Below, one piece after another: positions 3,345 to 47,891 of a stretch of 64,000 nt of DNA. Positions within the stretch are counted from its first letter, which is position 1. Each line of letters opens with the position of its first letter. The notes beneath the pieces were generated by a model, which had not been told where the DNA came from, did no database searches, and saw only the letters and a list, made by a program, of their open reading frames with translations. Position numbers and translations under genes: made by a program. The stretch comes from Bernardetia sp. ABR2-2B (GTDB lineage: Bacteria > Bacteroidota > Bacteroidia > Cytophagales > Bernardetiaceae): NCBI RefSeq assembly GCF_037126435.1, contig NZ_CP147020.1, forward strand, positions 1,587,293 through 1,651,292, given 5' to 3'.

Positions 3345-3746
3345 ATGGAAGTTTACAAAAGTAAGTATATGTTATTGGAATACTGGGAGGAGTATAATTT
3401 AATAGAACTGACTTGGTTACCTGAAACTGAAAACAAGACTGAGGAAGAGTATAAGGAAGAACTTCTAAACTATCTTGAATGTTGTATTATTTATAAACCC
3501 ACTGGACTTATTTCTGACACAAGGGAATACTTTTTTACTGTATCAATTGAGTTGCAGGAATGGACAAATACAACAGTTTTTACTCGCCTTTTAGAGCTAG
3601 GATTATCAAGAGTTGCTTTTGTAAGGAGTCCTGAATTGATAGCACAACTTTCCATAGAACAAACACTTGAAGAAAATGAAGGGAGTAAATTTACTACTCA
3701 GTATTTCGATAACAAGGAGTCTGCCAAAGAATGGATAATTTCTTGA
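3345..3746 (+). CDS. small hypothetical protein; paralog of 50447..50887
   Basis: 133 aa. Shares conserved blocks with the 146-aa protein at 50447-50887: WTNTTVFTRLLELGLSRVAFV vs WTNENWFPRLLEAGIRTAAVV, and C-terminal ESAKEWI vs EEAKKWL. Confidence 0.55.
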   Translation: MEVYKSKYMLLEYWEEYNLIELTWLPETENKTEEEYKEELLNYLECCIIYKPTGLISDTREYFFTVSIELQEWTNTTVFTRLLELGLSRVAFVRSPELIAQLSIEQTLEENEGSKFTTQYFDNKESAKEWIIS

Positions 3747-3957
3747 TAAATTGATAATAAAAAACTGTTTGGTTCTTCCGATATTTTAGCGACTTTCTTT
3801 TTCTAAGGTCTTCCTTCTATTTTAATTTGGTCAAGCCAGACCTTTAGTACAGACTTGAACAAAATACAAGCTTTTTACGCTAAACTGTCGGAAAACCAAC
3901 TATTTTAATAAACCTCTTTACTTCTTATCAATTTCTTACCACTATCTTTTAAAAAGA

Positions 3958-4488
3958 ATGCAAAGAACACTTGAAGAACAACGAATTGAATTTTTGAAGC
4001 GACCATTTCTTGCTACACCATTAGCAGGGTTAATTATTTGGACAGTAATTGGATTATTTGGATTATTTTCTTCTACTATTGTAGCAACATGGTCAATTTT
4101 CATTGGAACTGGCAGCATTGTATATCTAGGTTTCCTTATATCAAAATTTACAGGTGAGAACTTTTTAGATAAAACTAAGCCAAAAAATGAATTTGATGCC
4201 CTTTTCCTCTTCACAACAGCACAGGCGATACTAGTCTATTCAATTGCAATACCATTTTTTCTTATAGATTATTCTTCCCTTCCCATGACTGTTGGAATTA
4301 TGAGTGGATTGATGTGGGTGTCGTTCTCTTGGATTATAAAACACTGGGTTGGAATCTTTCATGCATTAGTTAGAATAATTACAATTCTTATTCTTTGGTA
4401 TCTTTTACCTGAATATAGATTTATAGCTATTCCATTTGCAATCGTATTAATTTACATAATCACACTAATAATCTTAAAGAATAGATAG
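3958..4488 (+). CDS. hypothetical membrane protein
   Basis: 176 aa with 4-5 predicted TM helices. Confidence 0.5.
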   Translation: MQRTLEEQRIEFLKRPFLATPLAGLIIWTVIGLFGLFSSTIVATWSIFIGTGSIVYLGFLISKFTGENFLDKTKPKNEFDALFLFTTAQAILVYSIAIPFFLIDYSSLPMTVGIMSGLMWVSFSWIIKHWVGIFHALVRIITILILWYLLPEYRFIAIPFAIVLIYIITLIILKNR

Positions 4489-45648: not shown

Positions 45649-45808
45649 AGCATTTGATATTTTTTCAAAAAATAATGTGTCGCAAAGGTACAAAACTTAT
45701 AGAAATAATTTTATGCTGCTCTCAAAACAAAACTCTTTTGTTAGTTTTAGTTTAATAGATGTAATTTTGTTGTATCCTATTCAAGTAAAAAATAATTACG
45801 GATTTAAA

Positions 45809-46357
45809 ATGATGAACACCAACAAACTCAAAAAGATGACTTTATTGAAAAATACACTAGTTATTTTCGCTTTACTTTTCTTATTTAGTTGTACAGCAAA
45901 TCAAGGAGATTATACGATTCCTACAGATGCTTATATTGTAGCGAAATTTGTAGTTTTAGATGAAAAACTAAGTCCAAAAAATCAAAATTGTGTCGCAGAA
46001 ATTAATAATTTTAAAAAATTTGATTTTCATAAACATTGCTCTTTTTTGCTAGAAGAAATGGAATTTGATATAGATGAACAATATATTTTTGATAAAAGTG
46101 GAGAGTTAATTGGTTATTTAGATTATAAATCAGAAGGTGCAATTATTTATTCATGGGAAAATTCTGAAAATTTATCTGATTGGGATTCACTTTACCAAAA
46201 TAATAAACATAGTTTTTTAGAAGATAAAAAATATATTATTGATAGTTCTGATACTTTAGAAATTGAGCGTATTTTTTCAGATGAAAAACTAATTTTTACA
46301 AAAAGAACACAAAAACAAATTGAAGATAGTAGAAGAGTAATTTATCAATATGAATAA
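45809..46357 (+). CDS. hypothetical lipoprotein
   Basis: In-frame Met at 45809 gives MMNTNKLKKMTLLKNTLVIFALLFLFSCTANQ (signal plus lipobox). The upstream part of the listed ORF overlaps the cmk start and is unlikely to be coding. Confidence 0.5.
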   Translation: MMNTNKLKKMTLLKNTLVIFALLFLFSCTANQGDYTIPTDAYIVAKFVVLDEKLSPKNQNCVAEINNFKKFDFHKHCSFLLEEMEFDIDEQYIFDKSGELIGYLDYKSEGAIIYSWENSENLSDWDSLYQNNKHSFLEDKKYIIDSSDTLEIERIFSDEKLIFTKRTQKQIEDSRRVIYQYE

Positions 46358-46393
46358 AATTTGATTATCCCTTTCCCACCAAAAAATTGTAAT

Positions 46394-46582
46394 TTTAACG
46401 TAAACTCGGGATTATACCTACTGACTGTCAAATAGTTAGCCTGTTCTTTTTAATCTTCGATGCTGTCCTTTCGGGCTGACCTTGATTAAAAATAGGTCAG
46501 TCTCGTTAGAGCAGACCGAAAGTAGCTTTCCTTGTAGATAGAGAGATATTTCAGACTGTTTTTAATACCGAGTTCACGTTAA
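46394..46582. repeat. 189-bp MITE-like or structured element bounded by 15-18-bp terminal inverted repeats
   Basis: The left end TTAACGTAAACTCGG (46394-46408) is the reverse complement of the right end CCGAGTTCACGTTAA (46568-46582) with 1 mismatch. The interior carries nested GGTCAG/CTGACC hairpin motifs. The core ATAGGTCAGTCTCGTTAGAGCAGACC recurs in inverted orientation at about 51040-51075. Confidence 0.55.
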
Positions 46583-46730
46583 TTTTAGATAAGACAAAAA
46601 TTATATGAAAATTAAAAAGGAATTATAAATAATTTCAAACATTCTCAACGTAAAGCCTAATCCTTACGTTCTACTTATACACAGTAAAAAGAAATTTATC
46701 CTAACTAAAAACTAAGCTACAAATCTCTGT

Positions 46731-47891
46731 ATGCCCTCTCAAAACCATTCACGTAACTCTAATAATTCACGAAGAAGAAGAAGAAAAAAAGATTCTTGGC
46801 GTAGGCGAAATACAAGACGTACATTTCGTTTTATCAATAGTATCGTTTTGGTAGTTTCTTGTATTGCATATTTGTCTGTTCTTGTTTCTCCTGAATACTT
46901 TTGGTTTGCAGGTTTTGTTTCAATGTCAATTCCTTTTTGTTTGATAGCTAATATTTTTTTTGTTTTTCTGTGGTGGTGGCGCAAACGATGGTATGCACTT
47001 TATTCTTTGTTTATTTTATTGCTTGGTTTTCCTTTTTTTCTAGCCAGTATAAGTTTGGGAGGAATTTGGAATGAAAATATTGAAAACGACAAAAATTACT
47101 TATCAGTTTTGTCTTATAATGTAAGAGAGTTTGATATTTATCAAAGGCAGAAAGATGACTATACAGTTACCAAAAACACTATTAAGTGGATAAAAAACGA
47201 TACTTCAGATGTAAAATGTATTCAAGATTTTTATAACTCTGAAAGCGCAAAAATATTTAATACAAGGGAAAAGTTATCAGAACAAGATTCAGAAACTCCT
47301 TATAATTTTCATGTTCGCTATACATCTGCAAATCATCGTAAAGGTCAGTTTGGAATCGCCATTTTTTCGAAATATCCATTTATTAATAAAGGAGAAGTTA
47401 CTTTTAAAGTAAAGACAGATAATGGTGCTATTTTCGCTGATATCGTAAAAGGAAAAGATACAATCAGAATTTATAATATTCATTTGGAATCAATGAGCAT
47501 TAATCAAAACGAACTACAACTCATTGACCAGCCCGAGCAAACTTTTTGGTATGCAGGAAAACGCCTTAAAAGAGGATTTGCGATGAGAGCTGGGCAAGTA
47601 CAGACAATTGCAGAACACATAAAAACAAGTCCTTATCCTGTTATTTTGTGTGGAGATTTGAATGATTTGCCCTATAGTTATACCTATTTCAAACTTCGCA
47701 GAAACCTAAAAAACGCATTTGAAAGCAAAGGATTAGGAACAGGATTTACATTTAATGGAAAACTATTTTTTCTTAGAATAGATAATCAGTTTTATGATAA
47801 CGAAAATTTAGATTGTATTTATTTCAATACACATAGAGAAGTTCCCTTTTCAGACCATTACCCTGTTCGTGCAGTTTATGAAATAGAATAA
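46731..47891 (+). CDS. membrane-anchored endonuclease/exonuclease/phosphatase (EEP)-family protein
   Basis: Arg/Lys-rich N-terminus, 3 TM helices, then an EEP domain (…LSYNVREFD…IYNIHLESMS…ILCGDLNDLP…FSDHYPVRAVYEIE). Confidence 0.65.
   Translation: MPSQNHSRNSNNSRRRRRKKDSWRRRNTRRTFRFINSIVLVVSCIAYLSVLVSPEYFWFAGFVSMSIPFCLIANIFFVFLWWWRKRWYALYSLFILLLGFPFFLASISLGGIWNENIENDKNYLSVLSYNVREFDIYQRQKDDYTVTKNTIKWIKNDTSDVKCIQDFYNSESAKIFNTREKLSEQDSETPYNFHVRYTSANHRKGQFGIAIFSKYPFINKGEVTFKVKTDNGAIFADIVKGKDTIRIYNIHLESMSINQNELQLIDQPEQTFWYAGKRLKRGFAMRAGQVQTIAEHIKTSPYPVILCGDLNDLPYSYTYFKLRRNLKNAFESKGLGTGFTFNGKLFFLRIDNQFYDNENLDCIYFNTHREVPFSDHYPVRAVYEIE

Follow-up and report, generated by a model that had tools for sequence, protein, structure and literature searches.

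MITECca01 and MITECca02 of the Cardinium endosymbiont cOegib are miniature inverted-repeat transposable elements (MITEs) of ~240 bp that derive from ISCca4, an insertion sequence (IS) of the IS982 family (PMC9769881). These Cardinium MITEs were reported to be lineage-specific, amount to 169 copies and share their genome with the parental IS (PMC9769881). The ends of IS982-family elements start with 5'-AC and follow the consensus 5'-AC(N)6T(N)5TT, and the family includes IS1187 of Bacteroides fragilis, which is flanked by 7-bp direct repeats (PMC7335449). Additionally, insertions of IS982-family elements have been documented to change the expression of adjacent genes (PMC7335449).

Here we analyzed a short intergenic element in a 64-kb stretch of Bernardetia DNA, referred to below as the window. 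A first-pass annotation made from the sequence alone had left two alternatives for this element, a MITE or a structured non-coding RNA (ncRNA). The former is supported by ends that are shared with other elements, by the 6–8-bp duplications that flank such ends elsewhere, by IS982-family ISs carrying the same ends and by an 8-bp duplication at the element itself. We conclude with high confidence that positions 46398–46579 hold a non-autonomous IS982-family MITE and that it is ordinary selfish DNA.

Results

Boundaries and terminal inverted repeats of the element

The element lies in a gap (46358–46730) that contains no ORF of 40 aa or longer, and there is none inside the element. The first-pass annotation had pointed to this ORF-free gap and put it at 370 bp; it measures 373 bp. 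We set the boundaries of the element at 46398 and 46579 by comparison with related elements and by the published rule that the tips of IS982-family ends read 5'-AC (PMC7335449). The resulting element is short (182 bp, under ~300 bp) and has no coding capacity. The coordinates of its parts and of its relatives are collected in Table 1.

An element of 189 bp starting at 46394 had been proposed earlier, with inverted ends of 15 bp that could be extended to about 18 bp. The quoted left end, TTAACGTAAACTCGG, is found at 46395–46409, and CCGAGTTCACGTTAA, its imperfect reverse complement with one mismatch, at 46568–46582; these two ends span 188 bp from 46395. The inverted repeat is real, but its boundaries and its length required correction, to 46398–46579 and to ends of 17 nt. 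The extension AATTTTAACG/CGTTAATTTT is not inverted repeat and is instead part of the target-site duplication TAATTTTA. The same duplication accounts for the outer TTA/TAA of TTAACG...CGTTAA, which had also been counted as inverted repeat.

The two 17-nt inverted repeats agree at 15 of 17 positions, and both tips are 5'-AC, as is typical of IS982. Parsed on the IS982 consensus, the left end reads ACGTAAAC-T-CGGGA-TT and the right end, read inward, ACGTGAAC-T-CGGTA-TT; both ends satisfy the published 5'-AC(N)6T(N)5TT. The first 12 nt of the right inverted repeat, ACGTGAACTCGG, recur unchanged at the ends of L087, L021 and L018, which are full-length IS982 copies. A repeat search of the window returned the arms 46390–46414 and 46563–46587 (25 nt, 84% complementary).

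Inside the left end, the element carries a subterminal palindrome-like motif that is kept at the same offset in L058, L086 and L124 (~24–34 nt inside the left end). L091, from another MITE subfamily, and the full-length IS982 copies L018 and L049 have a similar motif close to their ends. This motif may serve as a second contact for the transposase or for a host factor.

Table 1. Coordinates of the element, its parts and related elements (window positions unless a locus is named; TSD, target-site duplication; TIR, terminal inverted repeat).
Feature	Location	Strand	Sequence or description
MITE proper	46398–46579	.	182 bp, non-coding, IS982-family ends; bounds from AC tips and duplication
TSD, left copy	46390–46397	.	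TAATTTTA; equals 46580–46587; directly abuts the AC tip
TSD, right copy	46580–46587	.	TAATTTTA; equals 46390–46397
Left TIR	46398–46414	+	ACGTAAACTCGGGATTA; 15/17 against reverse complement of right end; fits IS982 consensus
Right TIR	46563–46579	-	TAATACCGAGTTCACGT on + strand; inward reading ACGTGAACTCGGTATTA
Subterminal palindrome-like motif	46421–46431	.	CTGACTGTCAA in window copy, TTGATTATCAA in relatives
Central palindrome, left arm	46463–46481	.	CTGTCCTTTCGGGCTGACC; decayed; diverged without compensation in window copy, L086 and L085
Central palindrome, right arm	46495–46517	.	GGTCAGTCTCGTTAGAGCAGACC; itself a small hairpin; nearly invariant in 5 copies
Full-length homologue	L058 205–386		MAG CAVXHP01; duplication TATTTA
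Full-length homologue	L086 2209–2389		MAG CAVXHP01; duplication TAAAATA
Full-length homologue	L124 250–430		Metagenome contig, found via conserved internal 27-mer; duplication TAATTTA
Truncated homologue	L085		5'-truncated copy
Full-length IS	L018 674–1691		Microcoleus; ORF 303 aa, 182 bits on NF033520
Full-length IS	L087 5578–6607		Pontibacter rufus; ORF 301 aa, 185 bits on NF033520
Full-length IS	L021		Pontibacter sp.; encodes transposase homologue, 75% identity
Full-length IS	L049		Chryseobacterium MAG; encodes transposase homologue, 45–51% identity

A target-site duplication abuts both tips

A target-site duplication, which had been named earlier as a feature to look for, is present: TAATTTTA forms a perfect 8-bp direct repeat, nearly palindromic, that is flush with both tips of the element. 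For the chance expectation of the inverted repeat, we counted 15-mers in the AT-rich window that have an inverted partner with at most one mismatch at a distance of 100–300 nt. Four such 15-mers occur in the window and 4.5 on average in 30 shuffles, which is within chance, and because of these counts we dropped the inverted repeat alone as evidence. In contrast, only one place in the window, exactly 46398–46579, combines a 15/17 inverted repeat with an abutting 8-bp direct repeat, and none of 200 shuffles does. The element is present in a single copy within the 64-kb window.

The same ends bound short elements in other genomes

We scanned the query TTAACGTRAACTCGG across 185,579 species-representative genomes, which returned at least 120 loci. 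Among the loci listed, most are single matches of the kind expected by chance, yet there is a clear excess in Cytophagales. The listed loci include at least seven in the Cytophagales MAG CAVXHP01, three in Bernardetia, three in the MAG CAKZOK01 and several in Pontibacter species. The seven or more CAVXHP01 loci place the family with these ends at several unrelated sites.

Ends were then paired in the fetched loci by a 12-nt core with up to two mismatches, giving at least 30 pairs, some of them due to chance. Most of these pairs belong to Cytophagales MAGs, to Bernardetia and Pontibacter or to other Bacteroidota, and one Chlamydiae MAG and one Poribacteria MAG also contributed. In many genomes, the shared ends ACGTGAACTCGGGAWT bound elements of 170–304 bp with unrelated interiors. 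Perfect duplications of 6–8 bp abut the AC tips in 20 of the 30 end pairs found (for example TATTTTTA, TAATACTA, TACTTTA, TAAAATA, TACTTA, TAAATA and TATTTA), and most are of the form TA..TA. All of the short copies are essentially intergenic and lie between unrelated genes, and one and the same MITE subfamily is present in both orientations (L046 versus L054). Multiple copies bounded by the same inverted repeats, the pattern that the first-pass annotation had expected of a MITE, are thus found many times in other genomes, mostly of Bacteroidota. A scan of viral contigs for paired ends 145–175 nt apart found none, and a literature search for the end sequence returned only unrelated primer matches.

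Full-length IS982 elements carry these ends

The same ends, placed 1018–1046 bp apart, enclose one ORF in L018, L087, L021 and L049. The ORFs of L018 and L087 were scored against NCBIfam NF033520, the IS982 family transposase model with a cut-off of 130 bits (Table 1), and match Pfam DDE_Tnp_1_3 at 1e-49 to 1e-51. The shared ends therefore bound full-length elements that encode a transposase. Duplications of 7–8 bp flank L021, L049 and L087. The full-length copies agree with the published description of the family in their size, AC tips and variable direct repeats and in having a single ORF (PMC7335449).

Counted by eye, 29 of the first 33 nt of the L058 copy, a homologue of the window element, agree with the right end of L018, the IS982 copy from Microcoleus. 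This similarity reaches past the inverted repeat and fits descent from an IS of that group. No transposase homologue was found in the 64-kb window or in L090, L091 and L110, the three Bernardetia loci obtained through the scan for the ends.

A 182-bp subfamily with a conserved palindrome arm

Other genomes yielded four homologues of the 182-bp form; three are full length and have duplications of their own. The alignment of subfamily copies has a mean column identity of 77% over the full length, and the window copy is only ~75% identical to its nearest relatives. Since the 181–182-bp form occupies three unrelated sites with different duplications, the short form itself has transposed.

The internal hairpins quoted in the first-pass annotation were located at the two arms of a central palindrome (Table 1). 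This palindrome is perfect (~25 bp) in L058 and L124. The right arm block GGTCAGTCTCGTTAGAGCAGACCGAAA (46495–46521; alignment columns 97–124) is almost invariant in five copies from three genomes, whereas the left arm decays in three of the five copies and the remaining interior is only ~60–75% identical. Neither the full-length IS982 copies nor the other MITE subfamilies contain the right arm, and among 241 million metagenome records the conserved internal 27-mer matched one further contig, L124.

The right arm is more conserved than the neutral decay of a dead element predicts, and this counts against reading the element as a plain MITE. Its conservation weakly supports the idea that the arm is under selection. 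We consider it improbable that the hairpin GGTCAGTCTCGTTAGAGCAGACC(GAAA), which is nearly invariant in copies from three genomes while its partner arm and the interior decay, is a selected module of the subfamily. Such a module could be a binding site for a host or transposase protein, or an RNA-level signal acting on flanking genes, and the element would then be more than inert selfish DNA.

The locus in Bernardetia relatives

The gap is flanked by the ORFs 45677–46357 and 46731–47891. The element begins 40 bp past the stop codon of the former, which is lipoprotein-like, and ends 151 bp before the latter, whose protein is 100% identical to an endonuclease/exonuclease/phosphatase (EEP)-family protein of Bernardetia sp. 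ABR2-2B. For comparison, eight loci were fetched for seven Bernardetia relatives (L121, L122/L123, L125, L126, L127, L129 and L130). All seven lack the element in front of the orthologous EEP-family gene. Where nothing else has inserted, the gaps of the relatives measure 106–186 bp; the window gap of 373 bp minus 190 bp (the element plus one copy of the duplication) gives 183 bp.

Homology to the relatives starts at ~46636, and the surroundings of the insertion point cannot be aligned. Because homology begins only there, the element lies upstream of the conserved 5' region of the gene and interrupts nothing recognisable. With upstream neighbour genes that differ among the relatives, no precise empty site could be placed in an alignment. 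On the downstream side of the EEP-family gene, all relatives share one gene order (YcxB-like, NuoA, glycosyltransferase family 4). Directly upstream, in a comparison with L121, L122, L125, L126, L127 and L130, nearly every relative has a different gene, among them radical SAM, PD-(D/E)XK, methyltransferase, PBP and unknown genes. The boundary upstream of the EEP-family gene (45677–46730) is a recurrent synteny breakpoint.

The upstream ORF (45677–46357) encodes 226 aa with a lipoprotein-like signal (..LFLFSC..) and has a G+C content of 21–29%, compared with ~33–38% in its neighbours. It matches no Pfam family and is found beside the EEP-family gene in none of the fetched relatives; the gene may be specific to this lineage or acquired.

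Additionally, a hairpin with a 7-bp stem (AACGTAA/TTACGTT), CTCAACGTAAAGCCTAATCCTTACGTTCTACTT, is located at 46646–46680 upstream of the EEP-family start codon. The hairpin recurs at a similar short distance in the relatives, clearly in L121, L122, L126, L127 and L129 and more weakly in L125 and L130. It has no Rfam match and is a candidate cis-regulatory or promoter-associated site.

One of the relatives, L127, carries unrelated MITE-like insertions at 1967–2500 and 3670–4019, in the gaps that flank the same gene. The inverted ends of these insertions are ATATGAGTGACATT.../...AATGTCACTCATAT and AACAGGGCATGTTCATAAAA.../...TTTTATGAACATGCCCTGTT. This suggests that several MITE families reside in intergenic regions of Bernardetia.

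Discussion

The ends, the duplication and the shared occurrence of these ends with IS982 transposase genes identify the window element as a member of the IS982 family. As a MITE of this family, it keeps only the two ~17-nt inverted repeats that an IS982-type DDE transposase recognises (tip 5'-AC, ACGTRAACTCGGKATTA), with a short non-coding interior of nested palindromes. A full-length IS982-family element would provide the transposase in trans, and this enzyme would bind both ends and excise or copy the element. The element would then be inserted where the AT-rich target TAATTTTA had been cut in a staggered way, with 8 bp between the cuts, and repair of the gaps would leave the flanking 8-bp direct repeat. 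This course of events follows what is established for DDE transposons and MITEs.

The window copy looks old, with two mismatches between its ends, one decayed palindrome arm and ~75% identity to its relatives, and it is probably immobile. Most likely, the element has no function at its locus and would be neutral there. A regulatory effect on the neighbouring genes is not indicated; the gap contains neither a Bacteroidota-type -7 motif (TAnnTTTG) nor a terminator-like site.

It is very unlikely that the MITE has been co-opted at this locus or that its subfamily carries a functional module. Such a role might take the form of a read-through hairpin that stabilises or terminates the lipoprotein mRNA, of altered expression of the EEP-family gene, or of a protein site in GGTCAGTCTCGTTAGAGCAGACC. 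The element is 40 bp away from the stop codon upstream and 151 bp away from the start codon downstream, a position that would suit an effect on either gene, and IS982-family insertions provide a precedent for changed expression of adjacent genes (PMC7335449); however, no promoter or terminator motifs were found in the gap, and the orthologous genes of seven relatives are without the element. A long hairpin is impaired in the window copy because the left arm of its palindrome has decayed. The 23–27-nt right arm, nearly invariant in copies from three genomes, argues for a function, but this conserved module turned up in just one further contig among 241 million metagenome records.

The second alternative of the first-pass annotation, a stand-alone structured ncRNA gene of ~190 nt in which the inverted repeat is a long-range closing helix, was not borne out and is highly improbable. 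The region does fold well on the + strand (MFE -58.4 kcal/mol, z = -3.96 against dinucleotide shuffles), but the opposite strand folds equally well (z = -3.98), a symmetry to be expected of a DNA palindrome. It also sits in an ORF-free gap, yet this gap lacks the -7 motif and any terminator-like site, and sigma-70-like matches in it are no commoner than in shuffles. One compensatory change distinguishes copies of the small internal hairpin (CTCGTTAGAG versus CCCGTTAGGG). RNAalifold on the four full copies, however, returned a penalty of +3.06 as its covariation term. In that alignment the closing helix has no double changes and several broken pairs, the window copy does not keep the central helix intact, and the homologues thus lack the compensatory base-pair support that a generic structured ncRNA would display. 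Moreover, the supposed closing helix is a conserved IS982 transposon end that bounds unrelated interiors and transposase genes, and copies occur in both orientations with target duplications.

The failure to match known RNA families, noted already in the first-pass annotation, held up in Rfam. Rfam 15 at gathering thresholds gave no matches in the whole window, and a permissive search of 46300–46780 gave noise only, with best scores of 13–18 bits against thresholds of 50–211. A tRNA/tmRNA scan found none. We reject the structured ncRNA because nothing matched in Rfam, RNAalifold penalised the covariation and base pairs are disrupted at several places, in addition to the decayed palindrome arm and the IS982 identity of the ends.

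A chance inverted repeat in AT-rich DNA, or the remnant of a full-length IS deleted in situ, is almost certainly not the explanation: 15-mer inverted repeats are as frequent in shuffles and the window has a single copy, but the inverted repeat combined with the 8-bp duplication never arose in 200 shuffles, the ends are common to dozens of elements, and the homologous 181–182-bp form stands at three unrelated sites with different duplications, so that the full-length homologues L058, L086 and L124, each with its own duplication, led us to reject the deletion remnant.

In annotation, the 182-bp element is best entered as a mobile-element repeat and not as a candidate ncRNA. IS982-type MITEs are rarely annotated in Cytophagales and other Bacteroidota, and the end motif ACGTGAACTCGGGAWT together with a 6–8-bp TA..TA duplication offers a ready signature for them in these groups. 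Several subfamilies with unrelated interiors share these ends, which shows that a single IS982 lineage has given rise to MITEs repeatedly. For genome dynamics this point is a modest one, and it involves no new mechanism.

Among bacterial MITEs built of nested palindromes are the Correia elements of Neisseria, the enterobacterial ERIC/IRU elements and the pneumococcal RUP elements. The window element resembles them in being small and intergenic, with terminal inverted repeats, short duplications and the ability to form a long hairpin when transcribed. It differs from them in that their ends are unrelated and their partner transposases are different or unknown. Regulatory roles, as promoters, RNase III sites or IHF sites, have been shown for some elements of the Correia/ERIC/RUP type.

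Compared with IS982-family ISs such as IS1187, the window element has the same 5'-AC tips, the same AC(N)6T(N)5TT pattern and direct repeats of a few bp (6–8 bp across its family). The full-length elements with identical ends (L087, L021, L049 and L018) encode a single IS982-type DDE transposase of ~300 aa, whereas the window element has no transposase gene and is ~850 bp shorter. It cannot move on its own.

Similar to MITECca01 and MITECca02, the window element is a short, transposase-less element of a Bacteroidota genome that has IS982 inverted repeats, belongs to a mostly intergenic set and is presumably mobilised in trans. In contrast to them, it measures 182 bp, has an unrelated interior and is visible in one copy in 64 kb, where no parental IS was found; this comparison covers description, size, copy number and interior, with the letters of the inverted repeats outside it. 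Additionally, whereas the Cardinium MITEs were reported to be lineage-specific, the ends of the window element are common to several Bacteroidota lineages and to a cyanobacterial IS copy. IS982-derived MITEs have already been described in Bacteroidota, and the window element adds a member with an unrelated interior.
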